A DNA stretch of 64,000 nucleotides from a virus: IMG/VR virus record IMGVR_UViG_3300045988_168552, one strand, 5' to 3'. The notes beneath the pieces were generated by a model that saw only the letters and a program-made list of their open reading frames with translations, ran no database searches and was not told the origin of the DNA. Positions 18,583-59,830 of the stretch are shown here, piece by piece. Position numbers and translations under genes: made by a program. Every line of letters starts with the position of its first letter. Positions within the stretch are counted from its first letter, which is position 1.

Positions 18583-19659
18583 ATGTTTGAGGAGATATGT
18601 TCCATCTATCGGGATGCGAAAGATGCACTCGGAAGATACGTCGATATGGAGACGGGCGAGTGCATCACGCAGATGTCTATCCGTGAGTTCTGTCTTACGG
18701 ATAGGTGGAAGCCGTATGTAGAGAAGCTGAGAGACATGCGGCAGGAATTTGGCAGCAAGGCGAAGAAGATGTCGGAGTACATCGAAACAAAAAAGATGCT
18801 TCCGGGAGCCACACTGAGCGGTCTCTTCCGTCTTTACGAAGACGAAAGCCTTACCCACCCCGGTCAGCGGGTGATGGTTTCCCGAAGAGAAACCCACCTT
18901 CAGCAGCATACTGGATGGCTCGCCATCGACATCGACCTTCAGGACAATCAGCAGCTTACCAATTTCGAGAATATCCGCATGGTGACTCGCTTCCGCCCGG
19001 AGATAGGCTTGCTGATGCGTTCCTGTTCGGGTACCGGATATTTCGGACTGGTTCGCCTGGCTTATCCCGATAGGCACAAGGAGCAGTTCAAGGCTATCCT
19101 CAAGGAATACGCAGCCCTGGGAATTGTGCTCGACAAGCAATGTGGCAATATCGGACGTGTGCGCTTCGCCTCATGGGATGATGCCGACCATATATATATT
19201 AATAATAATGTACAACCATACCTAGGCTTGGCGACAGATGAGCCGCAGGTGATACCACAGGCACGCCCGATGTATCGGCAGACGCAGAGTAACACCTCTG
19301 CTGTTTACGGCAATGGCTACGACAATAAAGCCTTCTGGAATGATCCTCGCACGCAAGACCGCATCATCGAACTCATCGTAAAAGCCTTGGTGAGCCGAAA
19401 CATCAACATCACGGAAAGCTACGATGAGTGGACCAAGGCAGGTTGGGCATTGAAGGCGCATCCCTATGGCGAACGTCTGTTTCACGAGCTTTCGGCATGT
19501 AGTCAGAAATACAATGCTGCTCAAGCATCGCAGAAGTGGCGACAGTTGGGCAGAAGCACCACCGTGAGTTACAATTACCTCATCCACGCCTGCAAGGAGA
19601 ATTTAGGCCAAGGAGAATATCACTCTATCCTGCAGCAGGTATGGAGGGAAAGAGGCTAA
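18583..19659 (+). CDS. primase/replication-initiation-like protein (AEP-like N-terminus, PriCT-2-like C-terminus)
   Basis: 'WLAIDIDL' acidic motif. 'ESYDEWTKAGWALKAHPYGERLFHELSACSQKYNAAQASQKW' resembles the primase C-terminal 2 domain. Adjacent to the iteron region. Confidence 0.5.
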   Translation: MFEEICSIYRDAKDALGRYVDMETGECITQMSIREFCLTDRWKPYVEKLRDMRQEFGSKAKKMSEYIETKKMLPGATLSGLFRLYEDESLTHPGQRVMVSRRETHLQQHTGWLAIDIDLQDNQQLTNFENIRMVTRFRPEIGLLMRSCSGTGYFGLVRLAYPDRHKEQFKAILKEYAALGIVLDKQCGNIGRVRFASWDDADHIYINNNVQPYLGLATDEPQVIPQARPMYRQTQSNTSAVYGNGYDNKAFWNDPRTQDRIIELIVKALVSRNINITESYDEWTKAGWALKAHPYGERLFHELSACSQKYNAAQASQKWRQLGRSTTVSYNYLIHACKENLGQGEYHSILQQVWRERG

Positions 19660-20609: not shown

Positions 20610-21497
20610 ATGAAAATGATAATTCCTGGTGTTGAGTGGTGGCCTCAGAAGACCGCCGCTCAACAGATTGCTCGAGTAGGCAGAGTTTGCTACAAGAGCA
20701 AAGGTAAGCAGCCTGACGAGAATCTTCCTGAAGACAAGAAAGAAGATTTTCTGGAGAAACAGGCAGTGCAGTTGGCCAACCGATTCTGGGAGAGCGGCCA
20801 CCGCTCCATGTACCGACATGGTACCCTTTACTTCTTCGTGAAGAACGATAGTAGGCTGCCAAAACACCTCTGGTCTTTCCTCGTTGCATCACCTTACATC
20901 AATTATGCAGTGCAGGAAAAGAAGGTATGGATCAGCAGCAATATGCAGTTCCTTTGCGAGCACGGCAATATATTCGAAATGCTATCCCCATTCAATGTGA
21001 AGGAAGCCGAGTTTATCGAAAAGGCGCAGAAATATGATTGCAAGGAAGCACTCAATCTCCTCCGAATGACGCTGGTGGTGACTACGCAGATCAGCACCAG
21101 CCGTGAGTTGAACCGCACATCACCTAATAGCATCAGTGAGCAGAGTACACGCTATGTGAACCTTGAGAAGAAAGGTGGCGTGCAGATTGCCCGTCCCCAT
21201 TGGTTGCACGAGGGCACCCGCTGGCAGAAGTTCCTCTATCTCACCGGCTGCAAGATTGCCGACTGGCTCTATCGTCGATTGCTGAAATCGGGCATGAAGC
21301 CACAGGATGCAAGAGGCATTCTTCCTCTTGATACCTATACGGTAGTAGCTTACACCTACACCATCACCGAGTGGCAGCATATCCTCGACCTCCGCTTCAG
21401 AGAAACCACCGGCAAGGCGCATCCTAATGCCAAAGAGGTAGCCTTCGAGATCAACCGCATCATTGATGAAAGAATGGAGGCATTTAATAACAAATAA
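20610..21497 (+). CDS. thyX: ThyX-like (flavin-dependent thymidylate synthase family) protein
   Basis: 'ESGHRSMYRHG', 'SEQSTRYV' and 'QDARGILPLDT' resemble ThyX blocks. In my manual alignment the RHR signature reads R-T-S. Confidence 0.65.
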   Translation: MKMIIPGVEWWPQKTAAQQIARVGRVCYKSKGKQPDENLPEDKKEDFLEKQAVQLANRFWESGHRSMYRHGTLYFFVKNDSRLPKHLWSFLVASPYINYAVQEKKVWISSNMQFLCEHGNIFEMLSPFNVKEAEFIEKAQKYDCKEALNLLRMTLVVTTQISTSRELNRTSPNSISEQSTRYVNLEKKGGVQIARPHWLHEGTRWQKFLYLTGCKIADWLYRRLLKSGMKPQDARGILPLDTYTVVAYTYTITEWQHILDLRFRETTGKAHPNAKEVAFEINRIIDERMEAFNNK

Positions 21498-28492: not shown

Positions 28493-29398
28493 ATGGAGCT
28501 AAGACATTTACGTTCGTTTGTGTATGTTGCAGAGACGCTTTCTTTCAGCATCGCCGCCTCCCGATGCTTTGTCACCCAATCCGCCATCAGTCAGCACATC
28601 AAGGCTCTGGAGGATGAACTGGGATGCAAGCTGCTGATACGCACATCGCACAGCATCATGCTCACCGAGAACGGGGAGGCACTTCTGCCACGTGCCAAGG
28701 AAATACTGAAGTTGGCGGAAGACTGCAAGGAGCATATCAATGCACTCAACAATTGCATGACCGGAGAACTGCGCATCGGTGTAGGTTCCTTTATCGCACC
28801 CTATATTCGTGTGGCTGCACTTATATTCATGGAGCGATACCCTAACGTAAGGGTGAATGCCGAATTTACCAAGGCAACGAGCCTGAACCGCCTGTTGCGA
28901 GACCACATGCTGGATCTCGCTTTTACGATGAACGAAGCCTATACCAACGAGGGCATCGAGAGCCATCCCTGCATCCCATTCAGTATTTGTGCCATCATGC
29001 GAAACACACACCCTCTTGCCAGGAAAGATAAGGTAACATACGATGACCTGCTGAAGCATGGCATCATCATGCCCGATGTAGGCGAACGTGTTTTCAACAC
29101 TTTTCAGCAATATTTGCAGAACGATCTCACCAAATTAAGCGTAAAGTGTATTCTCAGCGACCCCGACGAAGACCTTGCCATCATAGAAGATACTCACCTG
29201 GTTACTTTTATGCCGAAGCTGTATCTGAAGAACCACCCTACCCTTATAGCTCGCCCTATCCTGGGCATAGGAGAAGAACTGATGAGTAATGCCCACTGGA
29301 TGAAGGATGTACCTATGAAACGTTCGTCACAACTCTTCCTCGACATTATCAGGGACGAAGCCATCCCGTATATCAAGGCTTTGGAAGAAACCATGTAG
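28493..29398 (+). CDS. LysR-family transcriptional regulator
   Basis: N-terminal winged HTH 'LRHLRSFVYVAETLSFSIAASRCFVTQSAISQHIKALEDELGCKLLIRTSHSIMLTENGEALL'. The 301-aa length is typical of HTH plus substrate-binding domain. Confidence 0.9.
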   Translation: MELRHLRSFVYVAETLSFSIAASRCFVTQSAISQHIKALEDELGCKLLIRTSHSIMLTENGEALLPRAKEILKLAEDCKEHINALNNCMTGELRIGVGSFIAPYIRVAALIFMERYPNVRVNAEFTKATSLNRLLRDHMLDLAFTMNEAYTNEGIESHPCIPFSICAIMRNTHPLARKDKVTYDDLLKHGIIMPDVGERVFNTFQQYLQNDLTKLSVKCILSDPDEDLAIIEDTHLVTFMPKLYLKNHPTLIARPILGIGEELMSNAHWMKDVPMKRSSQLFLDIIRDEAIPYIKALEETM

Positions 29399-34683: not shown

Positions 34684-35985
34684 ATGATAACGAAATTCAA
34701 TTTCAAGGATAAGACCATTAAGTCTTATGCCATCCGAAAGCTGACACCCTTCGAGTGTTTCCGACTCATGGGTGTGCGAGATGATGTGATCCGCACGATG
34801 CAGAGTACCAATGCCGAGGCAGCCGAGCGAGTAGCTGGCTATAAGAGCAAGGGAAAGGCAGAAGATATGGCAGTATCAGCCAGCCAGCAATACAAGCAGG
34901 CAGGCAACTCCATCGTGGTAGATGTACTTGCAGCCATCTATCAGCAACTCTGGTACCCGAAAGAACCGAAGCGTGAGGCACAGACTTCTTTCTTTGCCGA
35001 TTTCTTCCCAGAAGACCAACTTCCACCCTATCCGGTAGATAAGAACCACGGTGAAAAACTTATTCTCACCACCTTCTCCGGTTATGACTCGCAGCTCATG
35101 GCAGCCGATGTCCTCGCCCAGCAGCATCCTGATTTCCGTTGGACATGTGTAGGCTGGAGCGATATAGACAAATACGCCTGTCAGATGCACGACCTTATCT
35201 TTCCGCAGTTTGCTGACAAAGCCTTGGGCGATATAACCAAAATCGACTGGCAGCAAGTAAAGAATAATGTGGGGGGCCAAGAAATCGACCTTTTCACCTA
35301 TTCCTCACCTTGCCAGGATATATCGCAAGCCGGCAAGCAGATGGGTTTGAAGGAAGGCTCCGATACCCGTTCGGCATTATTGTGGCGAGTAGCCGATGCC
35401 GTGGAGGTATTGCGTCCGAAGTATCTGCTTCAGGAGAATGTGGCAGCCCTGGTAAGCGAGAAGTTTATGCCCGATTTTCAGAAGTGGCGTGATAAGCTCT
35501 CGTCTCTCGGCTACGTAAGCCGATGGGCAAGGCTCAATGCCAAAGACTATGGTGTTCCGCAGAACCGTGACCGTGTTTTCTGCCTCTCAATGAGAAAAGA
35601 TGTAGCCTTCGATTACCAGTTTCCCGACCCTATTCCGCTGAAGAGAAAGTTGGAAGATGTGTTGCAGGAGGAAGTAGATACAAGGTTTTTCCTGAAAGAT
35701 GAAGTCGTCAGCAAGTTCCTTCAGGCAAACGATAAAGACACCTGCGTCTTCCATCAGTTCGAGATAGATCCGAGTCATGAGAATGCGATGGCATTAAAAG
35801 CCATCCTCACCCTTTATATAGAAGAGGCGCATCTTTGGTATTACACTCCAAAAGAACTGCAGGAGAAGATTTCTTCCGCTCACGAAGACATCATCATGCC
35901 GCTGTTCAATGACTGGAAAGAGAACGGCAAGTTCGCAAATCCTAAGTTGGAAAATATGTATCATCAGTTTTTGAAGAAGAAATGA
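34684..35985 (+). CDS. DNA (cytosine-5)-methyltransferase core, circularly permuted (motifs IX-X then I-VIII)
   Basis: N-terminal part: 'IRKLTPFECFRLMGV' (IX) and 'KQAGNSIVVDVL' (X). Then 'LTTFSGYDS' (I), 'YSSPCQDIS' (IV, catalytic Cys), 'LLQENV' (VI) and 'VPQNRDRVF' (VIII). Confidence 0.85.
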   Translation: MITKFNFKDKTIKSYAIRKLTPFECFRLMGVRDDVIRTMQSTNAEAAERVAGYKSKGKAEDMAVSASQQYKQAGNSIVVDVLAAIYQQLWYPKEPKREAQTSFFADFFPEDQLPPYPVDKNHGEKLILTTFSGYDSQLMAADVLAQQHPDFRWTCVGWSDIDKYACQMHDLIFPQFADKALGDITKIDWQQVKNNVGGQEIDLFTYSSPCQDISQAGKQMGLKEGSDTRSALLWRVADAVEVLRPKYLLQENVAALVSEKFMPDFQKWRDKLSSLGYVSRWARLNAKDYGVPQNRDRVFCLSMRKDVAFDYQFPDPIPLKRKLEDVLQEEVDTRFFLKDEVVSKFLQANDKDTCVFHQFEIDPSHENAMALKAILTLYIEEAHLWYYTPKELQEKISSAHEDIIMPLFNDWKENGKFANPKLENMYHQFLKKK

Positions 35986-44844: not shown

Positions 44845-46053
44845 ATGGATAGAAAAATTTTAGTCACTGGAACGGGTATTCATTCTGCCCTAGGCAGAAA
44901 TACAAAAGAAGTAGCCCTCAATCTTTCCCAGGGCAAATGCGGTTTGGTTCATGATATGTGCCGCAACTACTATAACTCCGATCTGTGCGGAGACGTACCT
45001 AGTTGGGCAGAAGATTATGAGAAAATCCTTACCCATGCGCAGAATGCCTGCCTGCCTCTGCATGGTTTCACCGTCCTCAATGCCGTATTTGAAGCGCTGA
45101 AGAACGCAAAGGTCAGCAAGGATTTCTTGGAAAATCATAACGTTTCCATCATCGTAAGCAATGACTCTGAATGTTATGAGAGCCAAACCGTGGTGGACCA
45201 TGTGAATAAAAATCGTCACAACCGCTCTTTGCCGGTAAATACCCTGTTCCGTTCGCTCAACTCCACTATCAGTATGAACCTGGCATCCATCCTCCATATC
45301 CACGGCTTATCGCTTACCGTAAGCGCAGCCTGTGCCGGAGGAGGTCACGCCATCGGTCTTGCCAAGATGCTTCTCGATAGCAAGCAGACGGAAATGGTAA
45401 TCGTGATTGGCGCGCAGGAATGCGAATCTAATTACTGCATGGAAGCTTTCGATGCTCTCGGTGTTTTCTCACCCGATAATGTGCAGCCGTTTGGTAAAGG
45501 CAGAAATGGATTGGCACCATCAGGTGGTGCAGCCTGCATCATCCTTGAACCATCGGATAGTTTTCGTCTGAAAGAAGAGAAGGTGTATTCCTTCGCTTCT
45601 CTTTCCGGCTATGGCTTCTCTACCAATGGAAAAGCCATCACTACTCCTGATACCTATCAGGAAGAAGTATCTATGCTGAATGCTATCGAGAACGCAGGTC
45701 TGGACGAAGGTATGATAGACGTAGTACTTGCTCATGCTACCGGTACCCCGATGGGCGATGAAGCCGAGGCAAAGGCAATAGAGAAGGTCTTTCCTATCTG
45801 TCCGAACGTAGTAGCCACAAAAGGCTTAACGGGTCACGAGTGCTGGATGGCAGGCGTATCGCAAGCCGTGCAAGCCGTGATGATGCTCACCTACGGCCGT
45901 CTTTTTGGCGCTGTAACCACCGAGGAGAATGCCTTCCCATCCCTCAATCTTGTGATGCGCCCGAAGTCCTATGCTCCTCACCATATTCTCTGTAACGCCT
46001 TCGGTTTTGGCGGTACCAATTCATCCTTTATCATCTCAAAAGCATTGTTATGA
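44845..46053 (+). CDS. beta-ketoacyl-ACP synthase (KAS I/II, FabF/FabB-like)
   Basis: The Cys-His-His triad contexts look intact: 'VSAACAGGGHAIG', 'AHATGTPMGDEAE' and 'TKGLTGHECWMAG'. C-terminal 'NAFGFGGTNSSFII'. Confidence 0.85.
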   Translation: MDRKILVTGTGIHSALGRNTKEVALNLSQGKCGLVHDMCRNYYNSDLCGDVPSWAEDYEKILTHAQNACLPLHGFTVLNAVFEALKNAKVSKDFLENHNVSIIVSNDSECYESQTVVDHVNKNRHNRSLPVNTLFRSLNSTISMNLASILHIHGLSLTVSAACAGGGHAIGLAKMLLDSKQTEMVIVIGAQECESNYCMEAFDALGVFSPDNVQPFGKGRNGLAPSGGAACIILEPSDSFRLKEEKVYSFASLSGYGFSTNGKAITTPDTYQEEVSMLNAIENAGLDEGMIDVVLAHATGTPMGDEAEAKAIEKVFPICPNVVATKGLTGHECWMAGVSQAVQAVMMLTYGRLFGAVTTEENAFPSLNLVMRPKSYAPHHILCNAFGFGGTNSSFIISKALL

Positions 46054-47537: not shown

Positions 47538-50500
47538 ATGGCAACAGAAGCAAAGAATACAAACTATTGGATTTCGAGCAGTGCGCTCTACATCCAGCTT
47601 AATGCGATGGGTGAGCCAGACTACATCCAGTGTAGCGTAGTCTCCGGCGCATCCATCCTCTGCTATATGCAGGGCATTCCGGGTCTGGAGTATGATGCCG
47701 GTCACAACTACCAGCGCTGGCCTCTTGCTGCCTACCCTTCCGTCTTCCCTGATTCCGAGCGGAAGTACATCTATGCAGCCATCCCCCGCACGAGCACCGC
47801 CGACAACAATACCGCCGTGGTGGTATATCCGAGCGAGCGCATCGACCTGTACGGCTACTCTATCGCCAATCCCGACAAGCTGGTAGGCGACGAGAGATTC
47901 TACTACATCTATCTGCAGGGCATCATCTCTGAAGTGAAGACGGATGCTGATGGCAAGACCCGCAAGCGTAATTGGCTCCAGCACGTGGATTGTGGAAAAC
48001 TGAATACCGACGAATCCCTTTCGAGCGGTATCGATGGCTCCTGGTGGAAGTATAATTCCGTCACCGATTCCATCTCCTTCCTCAAAACCATCCTCTCTGC
48101 CACCTTTGATACGCAGACTGCCAAGGTTGCGAAAATCACGAAGCTGTTCCTGGGGGGTAGCGAGTTGAACGGCGTAGCCGATGATCTCAGCCTGGAAACG
48201 GATAACACGAAGGTGGTTACTCCTCTATATCTGGGTCAGTTTGGCGTGAAGCATTTCCTGGCGAAAGACAAGGATGATGTAGCCCATGGCACGATTACCT
48301 TCGAGAAGGTGCAGAAGTTCCTGGCAGGTCTGAATGTGGGTGATTTCAACTCAGAGAACGGCGGTTCGTGGACTCCCGATATAGAAGGTCGCTCGCATCT
48401 CATCACCGACTACCTGGAGGTGAGGATGAAGGCTATATTCGAGGAGCTTGTAATCAAGAAAACCTCCACCATCGGTGGTAAGGAGATTCTGTCTCCTGCT
48501 GGAGGCGTGGTGGCTCATAAGGTAGAAGAGGTTACTGTGACATATAATAATTTGTCACAGAAGGCTTATCGCTGCTATTTCTTAGCAGAACAGGAAGACG
48601 ATGCCGTGGATAATGATTTCGCTATTGGCGACCAAGTGCGTTCTGAGTCATTCAACGTTCGCAAGGGCACTTACCACAAAGTTGGCAATCACTTTTACTG
48701 GCGATTGGTAATCGGTCGTGATGAGGAACCTGTGGAGTTGGAAGGAAAGAAGTATCACTACATCGACCTCTCCGATACCGATTGCGCTACGGCAAGCGAT
48801 GTTCCTGCTAAAGGTGATGTGTTGTCGCAGTGCGGTAACAGAACCGATGTAGAGCGTCAGAACTGCCTTATCTTCTCGGCGGTAGATACCTATTCGCCAT
48901 CCGTCAGCCTCTATCACGGCATAAATAGCTATTCCTTTGCAAATAAAGAGTACGTGGAGTATGGCGTAAACAAGCAGACCAACAAGGCTTTCTTTAACGT
49001 CTATGGCGATATGTATGTAGGCGACCGACCTACAAAGGAGAATGGCTATGAGGGTAGTAGCTACATCAAGTATGACAGCGCAGCCAAGCAGGTATCTGTT
49101 AAAGGCAAAATCTCAGCCAAATCAACCGTGGATGGCAAGGAATTGTCTCAGTATATCAAGGAGAACTCAGCAGGAGGCTTAACCGAGGAGCAGGTGAACA
49201 ATCTCATCAAGAACTCGCAGGTGATAGCCGACCTTCAGAATCAGGTTGACGGAGCTATCGAGACGTGGTTTTACGATGGTGTGCCTACTTTGAAGAATGC
49301 GCCAGCAAGCAGTTGGACGACCGATAAGGATAAAGATACCCATCTCGGCGACCTTTACTACGACAACAAGACGGGCAAGGCATACCGCTTTGCCAAGGAT
49401 GGAAACACCTATAAGTGGACAATCATCACGGATACTGATATTGCCAAAGCTCTTTCTGATGCCAGCAAGGCACAGGAGACCGCAGATGGCAAGATGAAGG
49501 TATTTAGTGCTCAGCCTATTCCGCCTTATCAGTTGGGCGACATTTGGGTAAACGCTACCTATCCTACAGATGGCAGCATCTACAAGAATGAAATCCTGCG
49601 CTGCCAGACTGCCAAGGCAAAAGGTTCGTCATTTGCCATCGCTGACTGGACTAAGGCTTCCAAGTACACCGATGATTCTGCCCTCAATACCTTCAAGGAA
49701 GAGTACAAGAACGATATGGCTAGCTACAAGGAGCAGCTTGATGAGAAAGTGGAGACCTGGTTCTACAACTATGCTCCTACTACTCAGAATAAGCCTGCTT
49801 CCGACTGGACTACCGATACGTTGAAGTCGCAGCACGCTGGCGACCTGTTCTACAATACGTCAAATGGTTACACATACCGATGGACGGGTACGGCATGGGC
49901 GAGAATCAAGGATAACGACATCAACACTGCTATGACCGCAGCAAGCAAGGCGCAGGACACGGCAGATGGAAAGCGTACCGTTTTCACCTCTCAGCCTACT
50001 GTTCCTTATGACGAGGGCGATTTGTGGGCTAGCGGCGGAGATGATGGCAAGACTTTGATGGTGTGCGTTAAGAGTAGAGTCACTGGCAGTTTCACCTCAT
50101 CAGAATGGGTAAAGGCTAATGATTCCGACCTCAACGCATTCGCCAAGACCATAGAGGAAAGCTTGAATGGAATACGAGACCAGCTCGACAAGAAGGCTGA
50201 GACTTGGTATCAGGCAACCGACCCGAGTACATCCTGGACTACCGATGATGCGAAGAAGGAGCATAAGGGCGACCTGTGGTATAACACAAGCAACAACCAG
50301 ACTTTCTTTTGGAATGGTACGAAATGGGATAAGCAGGACGTGCCTACCGAGGTCTTCGACAAGATAGATGGCAAATCCAGCATCTATGTAAGCAAGCCTG
50401 CATCCTATGAGGAACGTGACCTCTGGATTTTGGAAGCAGCATATACCCTCGGTGGTGTTGCATATTCCAAGGGCGAGCTTGTCGTGGCAACCAAGACCAA

Positions 50501-53500
50501 TGCTTCATTCAGCGCAGCCGATTGGACAAAGAAGGTTAAGTACACAGATGATACTGTAGCGAACGCCGCCAAAAAGGCAGCAGAGAAGGCTCAGAAGGCG
50601 GCAGAAAAGGCGCAGGGTGACATCAGCAAATTAGGAACTACCGTAACTGACAACAAAAAGGCATTCGATAACTACGTAACAGATGGCTATCTAGAGCCTT
50701 CCGAGATTGCGGCTATGGCGCAGGATTCCAAGCGACTTGAAGATGCTTTTGCAGCCGCCGAGAAGTCTTACACTGAGGTAAAGGGAGCAGAGGTACTGGC
50801 GAACACCAAGGAACTCACTGACCTCAAAACTGCTTTTGCAACACTCACTACTGCCAAGACGGAACTCGTCACGTATCTCTCCGATATTTCGGCAAGATAT
50901 AATAAGGCTGATACTAACGGCAAGGCAACCATCGTCTCAGCAGTGGGAACGAAATTTACCAACTTCCAGGGTGCGTATTCGGCTTTCTACGACAAACTGG
51001 GTCTGGCGAACGCATATATCACTCGCAAGATATATGGCGACCTCGGTGTAGTTATAGGTGACGTAACCAGCCTTGCTTATTTAAAGAAGGCTCTGATGGA
51101 TACTCCCGATACTGAGATTAACGGAGGTCTGATTCTTACATCACTCATCGGTTTGCGAGACACGGGCGGAAACACTACGGCAGGTATCAATGGTATAACG
51201 GAGAAGTCTGCAAAGGGAGGCGGCATCGCTGCTTGGTTCGGTGGCGAAATGGTTGATAAGGACTACAACGATGGCTCGAAAACTCCTGCTAACACCATCT
51301 TCCGCTTCGATGGCTCGGGCTATGTGGCAGGCGGCGCAATCTGGTGGGGAACAGATGGTAGGGTTCATGCAGACCCGACATCGTTTATCATCAGCGAGAA
51401 GAACTTGGGTGCATACCTCACCTTCTTTGAACCAACATGGAAGTCAGGAAGTGCAGGAACGAGCGTTGCCGACCTTGTGTCGCTGAAGCCAAACGCACCA
51501 TTTTCCAAACTTGGTGTATCGGGCGATGCTACATTCGAGGGTGCAATCACCTTTCACGGAATCAGCATCACGTATGATGCGACCAACAAGGCTATCAAGA
51601 TAGATGGTAATCTCTATGCCACAGGCGGTATCACAGCATACGGAGCAGGAACGTCAACATCAGGTGGCGGCGGATTGAATGGTAGTGTAAAGAGCTATGC
51701 AGATGCCTTGAAGCTCACATCAGAATCGCTGTCTGAGGTTGCTTCTGCCTACTCCATCAAGGCTCTCAGCAGACGAATTGATAACATTGCTACAGAGCTT
51801 GGTGGTCTTAGCCTCTCTTGGGATAACATCACTGGCAAACCATCTACGTTTGCACCTAGTGCGCACACTCATAAGTGGGCTGAAATCACCGACCGCATCA
51901 CGAAGGTAAGCCAACTTACTAATGATAGCGGTTATACAAAGAATACTGGTACTGTTACATCTGTTAGTCTTACTCTTCCTGCTGGTTTGACTTGTGCAAC
52001 AAAGACCATCACAACAAGTGGTACGTTTGCCATCAGTCTTGCTTCTGGTTACTCTATTCCAACAACAACTAAACAAAGTTCTTGGGATAGTGCTGTATCA
52101 GTAAAACATAGTCATAGTAATAAATCTGTATTAGACGGTATTTCGTCCGCAAAGGTAACTCATTGGGATAGTGCCTACGACTGGTATGCTCTTATGACTA
52201 CTGACGAGGAGACTGCGGACGGCATTATCAATAAGTGGAACGAGGTAGTGAGCTTCCTCGCAAATATTGCACAGACTGACACTTTGAGCGGTATTGTTGA
52301 CGGAATCAATAAGTCTATATCTGACGAGGTAACAAGAGCGAAAAAGGCAGAAGGGGTAAATGCTTCGGGCATATCAGCCAATAAGACGAGTATCACCACC
52401 TTGCAGGGCTACTTCACCAACGGCTCAGCGAAGAAGGCTCTCCAGCTCACGAATGCTCGCAAGCTTTGGGGTAACTCGTTTAACGGTACTGCCGATATTA
52501 ACGGAAGCATCATCTTGCCTAGTGGAAAGTATATCTCCATCGGTAACATCAAGTTGGAGTATGATGCAGCTAATAAGGCGCTGAAGATTACGAATACTAC
52601 GACCGAAGAGGTGGCTAACCTCTACACAAGTGGTGGTGTTTCTGCCTATGGTGTGGGAACATCATCATCAAGTGGCGGTGGTCTCAACGGCTCTGTAAAG
52701 GCTTATGCTGATGCTATCAGGCTTACTACTGAAAACCTTTCAGAGATTGCTTCTGCATACTCAGTAGCAAAGCTCTATTCGGAGATTCAGAATGTGGCAA
52801 GTGCTGTTCCTAGTATCAGCGTGTTTGTGCCAACTGGCGGAAATGCCCTCACTGGTGCAACCTATGATGCAAGTACTGGTGTAATTACTTTCGCGAAGGG
52901 TACGTTCCTCACGGCTCATCAGTCTCTCGATGGTTACGTTAATGCGATAGCAGTTAGCGGAAGTGGAAATGCCGTTACTGCCGTTACAAAGAGCGGCAAG
53001 ACCATCACCTTCACGAAGGGTGCTACATATCTCACCTCGCATCAGAGTTTAAGTAATTATTACACCAAGAGTAGTGTAGATTCTCTTCTTAATGGTAAGT
53101 CTGCTACTACTCATACACATAGTGTAAAGATTAACGGTATCACTAAAACCATTGCGGCTAGTGGTGGAGATGCTGTAGATTTGGGAACTTATCTCACAAC
53201 ACATCAAAGTCTCGCAGCTTATGCAACTCAGAATTGGGTTAAAAATGAAGCTACTGCTCATAACGCAGATATGGTAGATAATTATCACGCTAGTGGTTTG
53301 TTTACTGGTTTCAGTATTTCTGATGTTGCAAACAAGGTTACTATTAGTATTGGTGGAACTTCTAAAGCACTGAATTTAGTAAGAGCTTTTCCTAGTGGTG
53401 TTGGACACAATTTTAACGATATTGCAACACACGGGAATAGTATGGGTATGTCTAATATTGCAGCACCTTATGCTAGTTCTACAGATAACTATCAAACGTT

Positions 53501-56429
53501 GAATGGTTATGTTAATCCTAATGGACAAACTGGTTGGCATCATTATATTAATCTGTCTTATACTGACAGTAATAATACGGCAACTTCTCCTAATATGTGG
53601 CAAACTCAGTTTGCTATAAAAGCTGGCTCTACTGAAGTTTATGTCCGTTCTAGAGCTGGAGGCAAGATAAGTAATGATGCAGCTTGGGCTGCTCCTTGGG
53701 TAAGACTTGCTAGAGTTACTGACAATGTAGCATCTGCATCAAAAGTTGCTAATGCTCTTTCTTGGAGCGGTTACAGTAGTGGTTCTTATAATGGTTCTGC
53801 TGCAAAGTCTATTAGTATTCCAAACAATACTAATCAGCTTACTAATGGAGCAGGGTTCATTACAGCTTCTGCTTCAATTACTGGTAATGCTGGAAGTGCT
53901 ACTAAATTACAGAATGCTAGAACTATAAACGGAACATCGTTTAATGGTACTGCCAACATAGTAACTTCTTATTGGGGAACAACAAGAAAGCTTTGGGGCA
54001 ATAGCGTGAATGGTAATGCTGATGTAAATGGCAGTATAACTATTGCTAATACTGATGGTGTTTATGTGCAAATTGGTGATGTCAGATTAGTTTATGATAA
54101 AGCTAATACTGCCATTAAAGTAGTTAAGTCTGATGGTACAACCGCAGCTAACTTCTATGCTACTGGTGGCATTACCGCCTATGGTGAAGGTAGTGGTTCG
54201 TCAGGTGGTGGTGGGTTGAATGGTAGTGTGAAGAGCTATGCAGATGCCTTGAAACTTACTAGCGAATCCCTGTCTGAGATAGCTTCTGCCTACTCTATCA
54301 AGGCTCTTGATAGTCGTATCTCCAGCTTGGAAGGTGGTAGTGCTACTACCATCTCTGTCAGTGGCAGCGGTAATGCGGTTACGTCTATCACCAAGAATGG
54401 TACTACTATCAGTGTTGTCAAAGGCAGCACGTTCCTCACCAGCCACCAAAGTCTTGATGGTTATGTAAATAATATTACCACAAGTGGCACTGGTAATGCT
54501 ATTACAAGTGTTACAAAGAGCGGTAAAACTGTTACATTTACTAAAGGTGCAACGTTCCTGACTAGTCATCAAAGTCTTAGTGCTTATTTGAAGTCTGCGG
54601 ATGCAGCTAATACTTACCTTAAACTTAGCGGTGGTGCTATGACTGGTAATATTAGCTATAAAGGGTCTAAGAATACCTATGACATGATAAGGTTTGTGGA
54701 CAACAATGTCGATATTTATGGCAATGGTATATGTATCGGTGGTGGCGGACTTACTATTATTGGTGGAGGAGAATCAGCAAGTGAGGTGCTAAAACAACAC
54801 ACAAATGGTGGAGATGAAAATATGATTGTAGCTAATGATGCTGCAATAGACTTCTTCTCTAATATGAATAGTGGATGGGATTCACGCAAAGCTGGTTCTT
54901 TTGATACATCTGGATATTGGAACGGAGTTGGATTTAAGAAGAATAATTCTAATGATAATTATGTTCTTACTGGAGGTGGTGGTCATAAAGCAATATCTAC
55001 TCTATCTGTTAGTTATGCAAGTAGTGCTGGAAGTGCTAATTCTGTTGCTTGGAGCAATGTGAGCGGAAGACCTACGAAAGTAAGTCAGTTTACAAATGAT
55101 AGTAATTATGCTACTCAATCTTGGGTTACTGGAAAAGGATATTTAACTTCTCATCAAGATATTAGTGGAAAAGTAAATAGAACTGGTGATTATCTAGATA
55201 CTGATAGTGATAGATGGTGGATTTCAAACTCTGAGTTTGGCATAAATTTACATAATTCTGATATTGTTGGTGTAAATAGTATATATACTTCTGATGTTTC
55301 AAATGGACCAGAAGAAAGTATATCCTTTAAGAGAAGTAATGGTAATTATGATACTCTAAGAATGGCTGATGGAGTAATATGGTTTGGTACTGATTATGCA
55401 CTCAATAAGACAATTAATGAATATCAAATATTACATACTAATAATATAAGGATAACTGGAAAGAGTAACGGTTTTATTGATATGTCAGCAGGTGGTGTTA
55501 TAAAACAAGCATATATTTATGCTATAGGTAGCATAGATGGATATGAGAGTTATCCTGATGGTAGAACTACATCTATTAATGATTATGATAAAGGTTTAAA
55601 TAGATTATTCTTAACTCATTCTACAAGCTCTCTTCCTGCGTCACAACGTCCATTAGGAAAAGATGGTCACATTTTACACTTTGGCTGGGATAATTCTTCT
55701 GGTTGGGATGCTCAATTAGCCATATCAGCTAATGGTGATAACCCTTATATCGCAATTCGAGCACAATATAGTGGAACTTGGAGAAATTGGTATGGTGCTG
55801 CGTTACTTAAATGTACTAATTATATTAGTGGTAATGGTGGATTAATTGTAGAACGAACTGATAAAAATTTAGATACTTATATAGGAGTTAGTAATGGAAC
55901 TTATGATATAAGATTAATGATTGGTTCTGGAAATGTAAATAGAGGTATTTATGATGTTGTACGTGATAATTGGATGCTATATCGTGATAGCTCTACGAAC
56001 ATATATATGAATGGAAGCGTTCTAGCTACTGGCGGCATTACTGCCTACTCATCCTCAGACATCCGCTTGAAGCAGGATTTGCGCAAGCTGGACTACTTCG
56101 GTATCATCAAGGCAATGGGTGGCACGTTCGGCTTTGCTTGGAAGAAGGACAATACAAGGTCTATCGGCTGGATTGCCCAGCACGTCTTGTGCAACCCTCA
56201 CTTAAAGGACATCGTGGAGACGGACGAGAAGGGCTACTACAAGATTAACTACTGGTCTCCGAAACTGATTGCAACGGCATTCGGTGCTATCGAGCAGGTG
56301 GGCGATGAGGTCGGCAGGTTGAAGGATCGGGTGGTCTTCCTCGAATCCGAGGTTCAGCGATTGAGCGGAAAGCAGGACGGCAATAACAAGAAGAGATTAG
56401 ATAACAAGAATATTAATTTATTAAATTAG
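47538..56429 (+). CDS. giant modular tail fibre with C-terminal S74-type intramolecular chaperone domain
   Basis: 2963 aa with several internal repeat families. The C-terminal 'TGGITAYSSSDIRLKQDL' matches the S-D-x-R-x-K autoproteolysis motif and is followed by a ~120-aa domain ending in a coiled coil. Confidence 0.85.
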   Translation: MATEAKNTNYWISSSALYIQLNAMGEPDYIQCSVVSGASILCYMQGIPGLEYDAGHNYQRWPLAAYPSVFPDSERKYIYAAIPRTSTADNNTAVVVYPSERIDLYGYSIANPDKLVGDERFYYIYLQGIISEVKTDADGKTRKRNWLQHVDCGKLNTDESLSSGIDGSWWKYNSVTDSISFLKTILSATFDTQTAKVAKITKLFLGGSELNGVADDLSLETDNTKVVTPLYLGQFGVKHFLAKDKDDVAHGTITFEKVQKFLAGLNVGDFNSENGGSWTPDIEGRSHLITDYLEVRMKAIFEELVIKKTSTIGGKEILSPAGGVVAHKVEEVTVTYNNLSQKAYRCYFLAEQEDDAVDNDFAIGDQVRSESFNVRKGTYHKVGNHFYWRLVIGRDEEPVELEGKKYHYIDLSDTDCATASDVPAKGDVLSQCGNRTDVERQNCLIFSAVDTYSPSVSLYHGINSYSFANKEYVEYGVNKQTNKAFFNVYGDMYVGDRPTKENGYEGSSYIKYDSAAKQVSVKGKISAKSTVDGKELSQYIKENSAGGLTEEQVNNLIKNSQVIADLQNQVDGAIETWFYDGVPTLKNAPASSWTTDKDKDTHLGDLYYDNKTGKAYRFAKDGNTYKWTIITDTDIAKALSDASKAQETADGKMKVFSAQPIPPYQLGDIWVNATYPTDGSIYKNEILRCQTAKAKGSSFAIADWTKASKYTDDSALNTFKEEYKNDMASYKEQLDEKVETWFYNYAPTTQNKPASDWTTDTLKSQHAGDLFYNTSNGYTYRWTGTAWARIKDNDINTAMTAASKAQDTADGKRTVFTSQPTVPYDEGDLWASGGDDGKTLMVCVKSRVTGSFTSSEWVKANDSDLNAFAKTIEESLNGIRDQLDKKAETWYQATDPSTSWTTDDAKKEHKGDLWYNTSNNQTFFWNGTKWDKQDVPTEVFDKIDGKSSIYVSKPASYEERDLWILEAAYTLGGVAYSKGELVVATKTNASFSAADWTKKVKYTDDTVANAAKKAAEKAQKAAEKAQGDISKLGTTVTDNKKAFDNYVTDGYLEPSEIAAMAQDSKRLEDAFAAAEKSYTEVKGAEVLANTKELTDLKTAFATLTTAKTELVTYLSDISARYNKADTNGKATIVSAVGTKFTNFQGAYSAFYDKLGLANAYITRKIYGDLGVVIGDVTSLAYLKKALMDTPDTEINGGLILTSLIGLRDTGGNTTAGINGITEKSAKGGGIAAWFGGEMVDKDYNDGSKTPANTIFRFDGSGYVAGGAIWWGTDGRVHADPTSFIISEKNLGAYLTFFEPTWKSGSAGTSVADLVSLKPNAPFSKLGVSGDATFEGAITFHGISITYDATNKAIKIDGNLYATGGITAYGAGTSTSGGGGLNGSVKSYADALKLTSESLSEVASAYSIKALSRRIDNIATELGGLSLSWDNITGKPSTFAPSAHTHKWAEITDRITKVSQLTNDSGYTKNTGTVTSVSLTLPAGLTCATKTITTSGTFAISLASGYSIPTTTKQSSWDSAVSVKHSHSNKSVLDGISSAKVTHWDSAYDWYALMTTDEETADGIINKWNEVVSFLANIAQTDTLSGIVDGINKSISDEVTRAKKAEGVNASGISANKTSITTLQGYFTNGSAKKALQLTNARKLWGNSFNGTADINGSIILPSGKYISIGNIKLEYDAANKALKITNTTTEEVANLYTSGGVSAYGVGTSSSSGGGLNGSVKAYADAIRLTTENLSEIASAYSVAKLYSEIQNVASAVPSISVFVPTGGNALTGATYDASTGVITFAKGTFLTAHQSLDGYVNAIAVSGSGNAVTAVTKSGKTITFTKGATYLTSHQSLSNYYTKSSVDSLLNGKSATTHTHSVKINGITKTIAASGGDAVDLGTYLTTHQSLAAYATQNWVKNEATAHNADMVDNYHASGLFTGFSISDVANKVTISIGGTSKALNLVRAFPSGVGHNFNDIATHGNSMGMSNIAAPYASSTDNYQTLNGYVNPNGQTGWHHYINLSYTDSNNTATSPNMWQTQFAIKAGSTEVYVRSRAGGKISNDAAWAAPWVRLARVTDNVASASKVANALSWSGYSSGSYNGSAAKSISIPNNTNQLTNGAGFITASASITGNAGSATKLQNARTINGTSFNGTANIVTSYWGTTRKLWGNSVNGNADVNGSITIANTDGVYVQIGDVRLVYDKANTAIKVVKSDGTTAANFYATGGITAYGEGSGSSGGGGLNGSVKSYADALKLTSESLSEIASAYSIKALDSRISSLEGGSATTISVSGSGNAVTSITKNGTTISVVKGSTFLTSHQSLDGYVNNITTSGTGNAITSVTKSGKTVTFTKGATFLTSHQSLSAYLKSADAANTYLKLSGGAMTGNISYKGSKNTYDMIRFVDNNVDIYGNGICIGGGGLTIIGGGESASEVLKQHTNGGDENMIVANDAAIDFFSNMNSGWDSRKAGSFDTSGYWNGVGFKKNNSNDNYVLTGGGGHKAISTLSVSYASSAGSANSVAWSNVSGRPTKVSQFTNDSNYATQSWVTGKGYLTSHQDISGKVNRTGDYLDTDSDRWWISNSEFGINLHNSDIVGVNSIYTSDVSNGPEESISFKRSNGNYDTLRMADGVIWFGTDYALNKTINEYQILHTNNIRITGKSNGFIDMSAGGVIKQAYIYAIGSIDGYESYPDGRTTSINDYDKGLNRLFLTHSTSSLPASQRPLGKDGHILHFGWDNSSGWDAQLAISANGDNPYIAIRAQYSGTWRNWYGAALLKCTNYISGNGGLIVERTDKNLDTYIGVSNGTYDIRLMIGSGNVNRGIYDVVRDNWMLYRDSSTNIYMNGSVLATGGITAYSSSDIRLKQDLRKLDYFGIIKAMGGTFGFAWKKDNTRSIGWIAQHVLCNPHLKDIVETDEKGYYKINYWSPKLIATAFGAIEQVGDEVGRLKDRVVFLESEVQRLSGKQDGNNKKRLDNKNINLLN
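49258..50400 (+). repeat. three ~150-165-aa tandem protein repeats in the fibre
   Basis: Units begin 'ETWFYDGVP..WTTD..HLGDLYYD', 'ETWFYNYAP..WTTD..HAGDLFYN' and 'ETWYQATDP..WTTD..HKGDLWYN'. Each contains 'KAQ(E/D)TADGK'. Confidence 0.75.
51612..51766 (+). repeat. fibre junction repeat, copy 1 (GGITAYGAG..GGGLNGSVKSYADALKLTSESLSEVASAYSIKAL)
   Basis: A near-identical protein segment with a DNA match to 54152-54308. A more divergent copy lies at 52619-52775. Confidence 0.8.
54152..54308 (+). repeat. fibre junction repeat, copy 3
   Basis: See 51612..51766. Differences are mostly synonymous and of all base types. Confidence 0.8.
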
Positions 56430-56437
56430 TTAAGAAA

Positions 56438-56743
56438 ATGGAGAATTTAAAGATTAACAAGAAGAGTGAACAGACAACCGCCACTTATACCAAGGGCGGC
56501 TATCGAGTAGAAATTACCTACAATGTTGACAAGACTGGCGGCAACATCGACAGCATCAATATGAGTATCTACACAGATACCAATGGTAACTATCTCGGCA
56601 ACGCGAACGCAAGCTCCAACGGCAGCGAGCTGACCTACAACATCAGCGGCATCCCTCAGAGCAAGCTCAGTGAGGTGTCAGCATTGATAAGTGAGGTTGA
56701 TACCGCTATCGCTGCCAACATGGCTAGCGAGACAGCAGAGTAA
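56438..56743 (+). CDS. hypothetical protein (101 aa)
   Basis: Starts 8 nt after the fibre stop. Confidence 0.55.
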   Translation: MENLKINKKSEQTTATYTKGGYRVEITYNVDKTGGNIDSINMSIYTDTNGNYLGNANASSNGSELTYNISGIPQSKLSEVSALISEVDTAIAANMASETAE

Positions 56744-56819
56744 GTATCGTGAGTATTAACGCAGGGTGGCTCTTATAGAGCTGCCTTGCCTAGTGTTTTA
56801 AGTTTTAAAGATTAAGCGT

Positions 56820-57881
56820 ATGGCATTAGCAAACGGAAAAATAACAGCTCCAGTCAGCGTTGATGACGTGAAATCTGTACTCGGAGAGTCCAGTAACGAC
56901 CTTGCTGCGCTCTGCAAGTCATCGAAGATAAATGTCTGGGCGAAGTACAAGCCTACCGTATTTCCATCACCCTTTCCTGCCGATTGGTACAAGGCGAAGG
57001 ATGGCAACTACGGCATCAATATCACGATAGAAAACGGCAAGAGCAACTGGAAAGACCTTGTAGCGGAATATTCAAAGGCTAATAATGGATATACCACCTT
57101 ATATAACAAGCCGACTGGCGGTGCGTCTGCGCCATTCCGCTTGGGTGATTTCAGAGGCTACTTTCATAATGCCAATCCCGAGGTGAAGGACTATCTATCC
57201 GCCAACGTGTTCATCCGTGAGAGTGATACCAATCAGATACTCACTCTGTTCAATCCCGTATCAGCAGATGGCTTACAGATAAGCTATTTCGATTTCGCCG
57301 CATTCAAGGATAAGTACTTCGGCTACATCATCACCGACAAGAGCAAGTCCACCCTCATGTTCATCACCACCGCATCCAGTGTGGGAACATTCACAGTGCC
57401 GCTGCCCAAGAATGCCCTTCAGGTAGGCGATTACCTTGCCTTCCCGATGTTCTGCTCATTCAACTATTCCAGCGTCCACACCCTTCACCAGATGACTTGC
57501 TACGCCATCCCAAATCTGGCAGGAGGCAAGCAGCTCTCCATCATCAGCCAGTCACAAGCTGTTGCAAGCAACTTCGCACAGATTACGGCAAGAGAGCAGC
57601 TTGGCAGAATTATCGTGACGCTGAAGTTGAAGGACAATGCCAGTCAGGTAAACAACGTAACCGTATATTGCGTATATCAGACCGACCCGTCAGCTGGTCA
57701 ATCTATGGTGACAGGAGAATACTACAATACCATAGGAACGATGAAGGCAGGCGAAACGAAAACGGCAACATTCAGAAATCTTACCAGCGGCAAGTCATAT
57801 AAGATATACGTGATAGCCAACGGTGTATGGGTTACAAAGGGTCTTATCCCATTTAGTAGTGGTATTATGCCTGATATGTAG
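56820..57881 (+). CDS. receptor-binding/tail-accessory-like protein, paralog 1
   Basis: Its N-terminal 45 aa, 'MALANGKITAPVSVDDVKSVLGESSNDLAALCKSSKINVWAKYKP', are shared with the next gene. The C-termini are divergent. Confidence 0.6.
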   Translation: MALANGKITAPVSVDDVKSVLGESSNDLAALCKSSKINVWAKYKPTVFPSPFPADWYKAKDGNYGINITIENGKSNWKDLVAEYSKANNGYTTLYNKPTGGASAPFRLGDFRGYFHNANPEVKDYLSANVFIRESDTNQILTLFNPVSADGLQISYFDFAAFKDKYFGYIITDKSKSTLMFITTASSVGTFTVPLPKNALQVGDYLAFPMFCSFNYSSVHTLHQMTCYAIPNLAGGKQLSIISQSQAVASNFAQITAREQLGRIIVTLKLKDNASQVNNVTVYCVYQTDPSAGQSMVTGEYYNTIGTMKAGETKTATFRNLTSGKSYKIYVIANGVWVTKGLIPFSSGIMPDM

Positions 57882-57921
57882 TAGATATAAAAAAAAGTAT
57901 AACGATAAAAAAAAAAGAAAT

Positions 57922-59237
57922 ATGAGTGTAAATAACGGAAAAATCACCCCCCCATATCCATCGATGATGTTAAGTCGGTGCTGGGAGAACCGAGTAATGA
58001 TATTGCCACATTGTGCAAGTCCGCCAATATCAATAAATGGGCAAAATACAAGCCAATGAGCATAGCCAAGCCGTTTAATATTACAGAACGAGACAGAGCC
58101 AACTGCCGTTATGGTCTGGATTTCACCACCAATTCATTACTTACCAATGAGTTTCGGAGAGGTTCATCTTTTAGCCTGAGTACATATTCCTTGACAAATG
58201 TACTGGATGCTGCCAGTGAATGGACATATTCCAGACCTAGAGGAGGTAGCAGTTCGCCCTATCGTTTAGGCGATTTCGTTAACAATGAAACATTAACAGA
58301 TGGGTATAGTGCAAAGACCTCTGCCCCTTTAGGAGGATTCTACAATGGTGTAATCGGATTGGATAGCTACAAGACTAGAACCATCAGCACGTCACCAGGT
58401 AAGACAGATTCCTCTGCCCTCAATGTAAGCCTTGAAGGTACAAGTCTCTTATATACCAGCTTCAAGTGTAGATGGGCTGGCTCAGATTTATATAGCCAGT
58501 CGTGGCAAGCACTCGGAATGGTAGGTTCAGATGTAATACCTATTAATAATATCCTCGATATTAATAATGGATATTATCGTTTTGGACTTGTTGTAAGGGG
58601 AGTAAGTAATTGGTATCTCTGTGTATCCAGTTCCACATTCAAAGAGGTAAATGCCAATACAGAAAGGCAGACTTCAGCACCGAGATGGATATGCCCGAAT
58701 CTGATGAGCAATACAAGACTTATTGATGAAGTTTTAGAGCACATGAATAGCCACGAAGAGTATTATGCTACAGCAGTACCTTGTATAGTCAAGAATGCTA
58801 TTATATCTGTAAGTGGCTTGATTTGTACCACTAAGCTTCAGAGTGATGGAGAGATATATTGCGTGCCGGAGGGTAAGGTGTTTTTTGCGTTGCAAATCAA
58901 GAAGACGGCAGCTTACACCGTTCACTTCACTGTAGCAGTCTATGTAACCAAACAAATGATAAACGTGGGAAATGGAGAAAGCTGGAACAATTATCCTGTA
59001 GAGGGATTTGATATTGTTTTTGATGGAAATGGAGTTCTTACTCAAGATTATACCATAGAAGCTTTCATCTCCTTTACATATCAGTCGGGCGTGAAGGAAA
59101 GAAAACAGGTAAGTAATTATAAAGTTACTGGTTCTATGAAGAAAGGTAGTGCCGCAGGAACGAGAGTACATTCAGACAATCCACCTAGCTACCCAGCAGT
59201 AGGTAGTATTGTTGTTCAAAGAATAACATGGAAATAA
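57922..59237 (+). CDS. receptor-binding/tail-accessory-like protein, paralog 2, interrupted by a frameshift at a C7 tract
   Basis: ATG 57922 gives 'MSVNNGKITPP'. The -1 frame continues 'ISIDDVKSVLGEPSNDIATLCKSANINKWAKYKP', matching paralog 1. C7 lies at 57947-57953. Confidence 0.6.
57947..57953 (+). repeat. homopolymeric C7 tract at the frame junction
   Basis: Counted directly. Eight C's, or a -1 ribosomal slip, would restore the frame. Confidence 0.9.
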
Positions 59238-59302
59238 AATATAAGTAATTTAAGTATTATAATAATTCCTCTTATATCCTTGCATATACAGAATATTTTT
59301 CG

Positions 59303-59310
59303 TATCTTTG
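59303..59310 (+). promoter_or_regulatory. -7 box TAtcTTTG (16-mer TTTTTCGTATCTTTGC shared with 60165-60180)
   Basis: 49 nt upstream of 59360. Confidence 0.5.
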
Positions 59311-59359
59311 CGGAGTATTAAGAATTTTATTTTAAGTTTAACATAAAGAGCAGAACAAA

Positions 59360-59830
59360 ATGAAGAAGATTAAGACAATCGAGGCTGTTGCAGCCTACAA
59401 GACATTGAAGGCATTGAAGACATCATCAATGAGCGATGATGCATCCTTGCGAGTTTGGAAGAATATGAAGGCGCTTCGCCACGTAGCCGATACCTACGAC
59501 AAGGATGTGGAGGAAGCGCAGGAGAGCTTGAAGGACGATAAGTTCGAGGAGATGCAGCGCAAGCTCCAGGAGTGCCAGCAGCTTGAACAGAAGCACGCCG
59601 ATGAGGGCTACGAATACACCAAGGACGATTCCGCCAAGTTTGCGGAGGTTAATGAGTACTTCTTCAATCAGAAGCAGAAGACAGAGAAGTATTTCTCAGA
59701 CCTTGCCAATGCCGAGGTAGAGGTGTCCATCGAGGAGGTTGACGAGAAGGAATTGTTCAAGGCAGCTAAGGATTGCGGCTTGAAGTTCGCCGATATGGAG
59801 ACCCTGGAAGCCGTAATGGCAGAAGCCTAG
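59360..59830 (+). CDS. acidic hypothetical protein (156 aa), stand-alone transcription unit
   Basis: ORF track. It has its own -7 box and terminator and is D/E-rich. Confidence 0.6.
   Translation: MKKIKTIEAVAAYKTLKALKTSSMSDDASLRVWKNMKALRHVADTYDKDVEEAQESLKDDKFEEMQRKLQECQQLEQKHADEGYEYTKDDSAKFAEVNEYFFNQKQKTEKYFSDLANAEVEVSIEEVDEKELFKAAKDCGLKFADMETLEAVMAEA

Follow-up and report, generated by a model that had tools for sequence, protein, structure and literature searches.

A run of seven cytosines near the start of a gene in a viral tail module probably acts as a simple-sequence contingency locus, at which slipped-strand changes in run length would switch the gene on and off by phase variation. 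Two paralogs, called here slot 1 and slot 2, lie in tandem in a 64-kb stretch of DNA from IMG/VR virus record IMGVR_UViG_3300045988_168552, and the gene with the run is slot 2. This whole stretch is referred to as the window, and position 1 is its first letter. At the same site, related contigs of 70-97 kb, from human gut samples, carry runs of six, seven or eight cytosines (C6, C7 and C8), and only C8 places the start codon in frame with the gene.

The poly-C tract and its reading frames

The arithmetic of the run was derived from the window sequence and the translations of its open reading frames (ORFs). The tract, the proposed hypermutable switch point, occupies positions 57947..57953 of the + strand. 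It is preceded by the start codon and codons 1-8 (MSVNNGKI) and the first base of codon 9 (57922..57946, +), and followed by the gene body, residues 12-438 plus the stop codon (57954..59237, +), the frame of which is reached in the C7 window only via C8 or a -1 slip. From the ATG the window reads MSVNNGKITPPYPSMM... and the frame ends after 45 codons at a TGA (58057..58059, +). A second frame opens at 57936, after TAA 57933-57935, reads ISIDDVKSVLGEPSNDIATLCKSANINKWAKYKP... and runs to a stop at 59235-59237. Frame computation shows that adding one C joins the two into a single protein of 438 amino acids (aa). The tract spans codons 9-11 of the ORF, and the in-frame peptide across the junction is KITPPISIDDVK (...KITPPISIDD...). 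The product of a C8 gene is thus 438 aa long; that of a C7 gene is 45 aa in the window and 36 aa with other C-terminal parts, and that of a C6 gene is 14 aa. An earlier note on this DNA had described the ATG at 57922 as opening MSVNNGKITPP before running off frame, the -1 frame as open from 57936, and the C7 run at 57947-57953 as yielding a 438-aa protein with eight C's. All of this is borne out by the sequence.

The same note held that the product matches the N-terminus of the upstream paralog residue for residue. Slot 1 (56820..57881, +; 353 aa) has the same N-terminal module, has no tract and is constitutively in frame. The first 45 residues of slot 2 align to it without gaps, and C8 restores the register of the paralog exactly (M-x-x-x-N-G-K-I-T-x-P-x-S-x-D-D). 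The claim holds for register but goes too far on identity, which extends to 33 of the 45 residues and 61% of the nucleotides. At the position of the run slot 1 reads ACA GCT CCA, and no tract is present in the slot-1 gene of any related contig.

The two paralogs are separated by an A-rich leader of 40 nucleotides (57882..57921, +), which holds an A8 (57889-57896) and an A10 (57907-57916), and no terminator-like site was found in this spacer. The leader and the ATG at 57922-57924 are kept in all related loci. The A10 is specific to the window; relatives read A6-G-A3, hence a G-to-A change merged the runs. The A8 and A10 could be slippage-prone themselves, and could affect initiation.

Tract length among related contigs

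Assembled contigs were compared by a flank-pattern scan allowing any 3-16 bases between fixed conserved flanks. The scan yielded 27 viral and 20 metagenome contigs, to which an exact-protein look-up added one Logan contig. Pure runs of six to eight C's were found in all 48 (C7 in 27, C8 in 18, C6 in 3). Four more contigs, the flanks of which differ slightly, came from a protein-based search. After removal of contigs representing the same record in two collections, 46 were left, the window included: 27 are C7, 16 are C8 and hence in frame, and 3 are C6. The earlier note had proposed to count tract length across metagenomes; carried out on assembled contigs, the count retrieved all three lengths, which favours phase variation.

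Contigs that are nearly identical elsewhere differ at the tract. L007 (C8) and L017 (C7) align over 8138 bp with 17 mismatches and a single gap, which is the tract. L017 and L034 (C8) differ over 6485 bp by one mismatch and the same gap, and L016 (C7) and L007 over 3303 bp by the gap alone. The tract is thus the sole indel between contigs 99.8-100% identical over 3-8 kb, and a T8 run inside the L007/L017 alignment is unchanged in length. Fitch parsimony on neighbour-joining trees of the three common types of C-terminal part (36 sequences) requires at least 5, 6 and 2 changes of tract state, 13 altogether. All three types include both C7 and C8, and of the eight N-module haplotypes that recur among the contigs, five are found with two or more tract lengths. 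Taken together, near-identical pairs, trees and mixed haplotypes show that independent changes in tract length happened many times. The polymorphism lies in the DNA itself, and is recurrent.

Homopolymers are prone to error on some platforms, and C7 might be an artefact of assembly, sequencing or polishing, the tract being truly C8 everywhere. After de-duplication, however, 27 contigs, the products of different projects and assemblers, have C7 as their consensus. Every data source contains both C7 and C8, as does the set of SPAdes contigs with a coverage of 82-323x (L031, L041, L045 and L047 among those with C7), which makes a consensus-level artefact very unlikely. The Logan contig SRR5032348 independently matches the window over 7040 bp, C7 included, and is identical to it. 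Moreover, no other homopolymer, the T8 in L007 being an example, differs between near-identical contigs. A uniform C8 is barely credible in the light of these data.

The earlier note offered two mechanisms, DNA-level phase variation and a -1 ribosomal slip. The first gains from the finding of C6 to C8 in near-identical genomes, and from the selection seen in OFF alleles (see below). According to the second, the full-length protein would normally be made from a C7 genome by a programmed -1 shift of the ribosome, or by slippage in transcription, on C_CCC_CCA, yielding a little 438-aa protein along with a short peptide. The zero-frame C CCC CCA formally fits an X XXY YYZ heptamer, a -1 slip does restore the frame, and C7 is the commonest state (27 of the 46 contigs). 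Yet the 107 nucleotides after the tract (57954-58060) fold at -20.1 kcal/mol against a mean of -21.1 kcal/mol for shuffled sequences (z = 0.30), folds across the tract are also no better than shuffles, and no Rfam match was found. Nor is the configuration conserved: the 16 C8 contigs need no shift at all, and the three with C6 would need a +1 or -2 shift. The zero-frame peptides, of 14, 36 or 45 aa, have ends that are not conserved, and a shift at codon 10 gives no useful upstream product. We regard a programmed shift as decidedly improbable; low-level slippage on C7 is possible, but is not the organising principle of the locus.

Contig L058 is a case apart. Here (~150-240) the run is C5, the sequence 5' of it is unrelated, and there is no start codon. 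The breakpoint lies exactly at the tract and near the contig end, and may be a rearrangement or an assembly join.

Selection, cassette exchange and the proposed switch

In all contigs holding the full-length gene, the frame 3' of the tract is intact, with no stop or second frameshift. The alleles sharing the C-terminal part of the window, hereafter the 438-type, all keep a 1281-nucleotide frame downstream of the tract. Their median ratio of nonsynonymous to synonymous substitution rates (dN/dS) is 0.10, at dS of 0.56-0.73, and is equal for OFF-OFF, ON-OFF and ON-ON pairs. The slot-2 gene is thus generally under purifying selection, also across lineages now OFF. An intact frame and a dN/dS of ~0.10 in OFF alleles are what a reversible OFF state predicts, and are unlike a dead gene.

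The tract itself is an anomaly in its surroundings. It is the sole G/C run of seven or more in the 64-kb window. In 466,714 nucleotides of related loci, 46 such runs were counted; 45 are the tract, and only one lies elsewhere, against ~12.8 expected from base composition. G/C runs of this length are avoided outside the tract. The residues T-P-P are encoded by ACC-CCC-CCC. In the long ORFs of the window no proline codon is rarer than CCC (13.8%), and a stable synonymous alternative (CCT or CCA) is one mutation away. The run is uninterrupted across 27 N-module haplotypes. Database protein P0037 ("KITTPISIDD") is the single case in which it is apparently interrupted. At the equivalent residues, members of the wider family and the slot-1 paralogs of all related contigs have "APVS" without a run, which marks the tract as a derived feature found only in slot 2 of this phage clade. 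On these sequence grounds the tract looks maintained.

A neutral reading would see in the tract a mutational hotspot in a dispensable accessory gene with no adaptive role, and in the window copy a recently inactivated gene. It agrees with the prevalence of OFF states and with the existence of lineages in which gene body or tract is lost. In the C6 lineage L018/L028, an exception to the intact frame, an in-frame deletion of ~720 nucleotides in the C-terminal part leaves a 104-aa remnant, and L057 and L063 are single-slot recombinants without a tract. It fits less well with a dN/dS of ~0.10 across OFF lineages, with full-length alleles free of stops and second frameshifts, and with a tract unbroken over 27 haplotypes while G/C runs were purged elsewhere; the synonymous escape through CCT or CCA has been seen only in P0037. 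Neutrality is, on balance, unlikely.

The ATG of codon 46 in the main frame (M46, 58056-58058) overlaps the TGA closing the 45-codon product as ATGA. Termination-reinitiation at 58056-58059, giving a 393-aa product without N-module, was considered and rejected as a designed feature, since only 7 of the 30 OFF contigs that were examined have the overlap, which is probably incidental. Versions of 419 aa (GTG start) and of 391-393 aa (Met46 start) are found in public sets (P0005, P0006, P0007, P0009 and P0012; UniProt A0A8S5QCR8). They are gene-caller products of OFF genomes, not real isoforms. The lesson for annotation is that gene callers split or truncate the slot-2 gene where it is OFF.

Slot 2 is made of two parts of different history. 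The conserved N-terminal module (residues 1-45, ...INKWAKYKP; 57922..58055, +) carries the tract and provides the 5' homology arm for the exchange of the C-terminal cassette (58056..59257, +, in the window of the 438-aa type), at the edge of which DNA homology breaks off. Homology to most related contigs ends at 58040-58056 and returns at ~59258-59332, ahead of a conserved gene of 156 aa (59360..59830, +) which serves as the 3' arm. At least six unrelated cassette types are found behind the same N-module and tract. At the protein level the cassette holds the conserved motif W..Y.RP.GG..SPYRLGDF (~58221-58277, +); after it come a helical segment and a C-terminal part that is all beta. The N-terminus is family-wide, and ~400 database proteins share the first 120-140 residues, motif included. 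The 438-type cassette also occurs behind a slot-1-type, tract-free N-terminus, both in P0001, a cluster with 464 member sequences, and in L057 (2501-3814), where the two are joined in a single slot. L063 (~2500-2830) is chimeric within the N-module, and has lost the tract. Lacking the tract, L057 and L063 can be described as "locked-ON" recombinants. The finding of one cassette behind both N-module types, and the L063 recombinant, indicate that N-modules act as recombination sites and that cassettes move between the constitutive and the switchable position. The standout feature of the locus is the placement of the tract in the shared adapter module, by virtue of which any cassette entering slot 2 would become phase-variable, while slot 1 stays constitutive.

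The earlier note had called the gene receptor-binding-like. Position and modular build fit the label: the gene comes after a 2963-aa tail protein gene and a paralog, and a conserved N-terminal part followed by a variable, exchangeable C-terminal part is the build of receptor-binding proteins and adhesins. No family or fold match backs it. The fused 438-aa protein matched no Pfam or PHROG family, and no PDB sequence in a profile search; for the slot-1 paralog a FimA-like match was below the cut-off (E 1.5e-3). AlphaFold 2 models, with a predicted local distance difference test score (pLDDT) of 73.7 over the full length and of 78.2 for a model of the last 177 aa, show short N-terminal helices and then a mostly beta C-terminal part. 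Foldseek found no PDB match at E <=1e-3 for either; the best match of the full-length model had E 1.3e-2 and a template modelling (TM) score <=0.14, that of the C-terminal model E 6e-2. The matches in BFVD are uncharacterised gut-phage proteins only, one of them from a crAss-like phage. One match of 393 aa, 97% identical, is an OFF-state gene call. From position, anchor-plus-variable-end layout and cassette exchange we infer a location in the virion and receptor binding, and a tail or receptor role is plausible.

The proposed switch would work as follows. During replication of phage DNA the polymerase would slip on the C run, gaining or losing one base. C8 would bring the start codon in frame with the 438-aa protein (ON), and C7, as in the window, would end translation after 45 or 36 codons, C6 after 14 (OFF). 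Slot 1 would always be produced, slot 2 only in the C8 subpopulation, and the virions released in a burst would differ in carrying one distal tail protein or two. Such a mixture may be a form of bet-hedging against hosts, probably Bacteroidaceae, with variable surface structures. Bacteroidaceae escape phages by phase-varying capsules and surface proteins.

Several observations weigh against the switch. The differences in length were seen between assembly consensus sequences, not inside one phage population, and OFF is the majority state among contigs. The contigs descend from a common N-module ancestor, so that the conservation of the tract does not amount to 46 independent observations. The losses in L018/L028 and in L057/L063 mean that the slot-2 gene is dispensable in some lineages. 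Finally, neither Pfam, PHROGs nor PDB sequences offered a match to the protein, fold comparison gave none that is significant, and its only relatives are uncharacterised gut-phage proteins. We nevertheless favour phase variation. A wider proposal, advanced more tentatively, concerns uncultured phages of the human gut as a widespread clade (70-97 kb, probably of Bacteroidaceae). By selection, this clade may keep a single hypermutable poly-C tract in the shared adapter of a second, cassette-exchangeable tail-tip protein, as a modular "switchable slot" for host-range bet-hedging.

Known switching systems and genome context

To our knowledge, Campylobacter phages are the only ones for which experiments have shown homopolymer phase variation of genes for host recognition; contingency loci of phages in general were demonstrated only recently, in T-even phages. 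Simple-sequence contingency loci are known from bacteria, for example in surface genes of Neisseria, Haemophilus and Campylobacter. As in these, the tract is close to the 5' end of the ORF, its length modulo 3 sets ON or OFF, OFF alleles keep the ORF, and tract length is homoplasic across strains. The locus described here differs in being virus-encoded and copied by the phage or host replisome in lytic growth, and the proposed switch would act on virion composition rather than on the cell surface. The outcome proposed here, a stock heterogeneous in tail-tip proteins, is also that of G-segment inversion in Mu and other Cin-type systems, and of the diversity-generating retroelements of Bacteroides and Bordetella phages; unlike those systems, the slot-2 locus involves no invertase, inverted repeats, reverse transcriptase or template repeat. 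A frame change at a slippery run in a tail-module gene recalls the -1 frameshift of the lambda tail assembly chaperone G/GT. There, however, the slippery site is fixed, conserved in all relatives, and gives two functional proteins at a set ratio, whereas here tract length varies and the short product, of 14-45 aa, is not conserved.

A close parallel is found in phages of Campylobacter jejuni (Fletchervirus/Firehammervirus), in which hypermutable poly-G tracts in phage genes were described by Sorensen et al. 2021 (Cell Rep 35:109214), as cited in PMC12823448 and PMC10877375. According to the accounts given in these articles, a G/C homopolymer inside phage genes creates subpopulations differing in the expression of host-recognition proteins, a subset of several receptor-binding proteins is switchable, and the host surface itself phase-varies. 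Compared with what is reported there, the phage studied here is an uncultured, siphovirus-like human-gut phage, probably of Bacteroidaceae. It has one tract per genome region where the Campylobacter phages have several, and a shorter run of 6-8 bases, set at codons 9-11 of an N-module common to many cassettes; the locus is known from sequence alone. In T2 and T4, contingency loci have been identified in agt and rIIA by Gomez, Barrick and Waters (bioRxiv 10.1101/2025.10.21.683753). They share with the switch proposed for the present tract reversible +/-1 frameshifts, due to polymerase slippage at mononucleotide repeats of at least six, and a proposed role in bet-hedging. They differ in being poly-A runs in anti-defence or lysis-timing genes, and mutants make up 1e-4 to 1e-3 of reads there, while here alternative lengths are found at the consensus level in different samples. 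The same study reports that repeats are under-represented in tail-fibre genes (0.77x). In the C3 phages of B. uniformis, cultured relatives of the phage described here, a 2-kb inversion in a tail-fibre gene has been reported (PMC9727126). In our literature search, no homopolymer switch turned up for gut phages of Bacteroides or of the crAss-like group.

If the proposed reading is true, the locus extends homopolymer switching to abundant uncultured phages of the human gut. ON/OFF status can be read from a 40-nucleotide motif, and is trackable in metagenomic time series; the ratio of the two states would be readable from public metagenomes, and might track capsule phase variation in the host. 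As a design principle, the locus would combine a constitutive and a switchable slot with a common adapter module.

Among cultured phages, only the Bacteroides phage C3_41T2LP of B. uniformis (OR296439.1) encodes a relative of the protein, 29% identical to it, which makes a host among the Bacteroidaceae likely. Megablast of positions 56400-59400 and 20000-44000 against GenBank phages gave a trivial 64-nucleotide match or none, and a search with the tract pattern through 185,579 representative genomes of bacteria and archaea retrieved nothing and thus assigned no host. In C3_41T2LP (L049) an orphan ORF of 62 aa (35-223), consisting of the N-module only, is followed by a full-length family member (213-1580). 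The depositors labelled the orphan ORF "structural (coat) protein"; this label is the only hint of a virion location. The split homolog was considered as a second frameshift, and rejected because it consists of an orphan N-module ORF and a complete gene, with no homopolymer. The arrangement looks like a recombination scar at the N-module. No publication on C3_41T2LP was found in a literature search.

The paralog pair lies downstream of a giant gene (47538..56429, +) encoding a 2963-aa tail protein, which matches PHROG tail-protein families at E 7e-85 to 1.5e-107. Next come a 101-aa ORF without family match (56438..56743, +), a strong hairpin with a 13-bp stem followed by a T-run (56761..56789, +), slot 1, the 40-nucleotide spacer and slot 2. 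The hairpin is conserved in L057 and L063, and may be a terminator or a processing site setting the pair apart from the giant tail gene. A tape-measure-like protein of 2031 aa and a head protease are also encoded in the window, as are two DNA methyltransferases (7376-8317, - strand; 34684-35985, +), the thymidylate synthase ThyX (20610-21497, +) and a BT4734-like/PriCT_2 primase (18583-19659, +), the family name of which points to a Bacteroides-type host. Positions 28493-29398 (+) encode a full-length transcriptional regulator of the LysR type, with HTH_1 and LysR_substrate domains. The tail module also hosts, between a 968-aa protein and the genes preceding the giant tail gene, a complete beta-ketoacyl synthase (44845-46053, +; PF00109, E 1.1e-24; PF02801, E 3.3e-19), an unusual cargo for the structural region of a phage.

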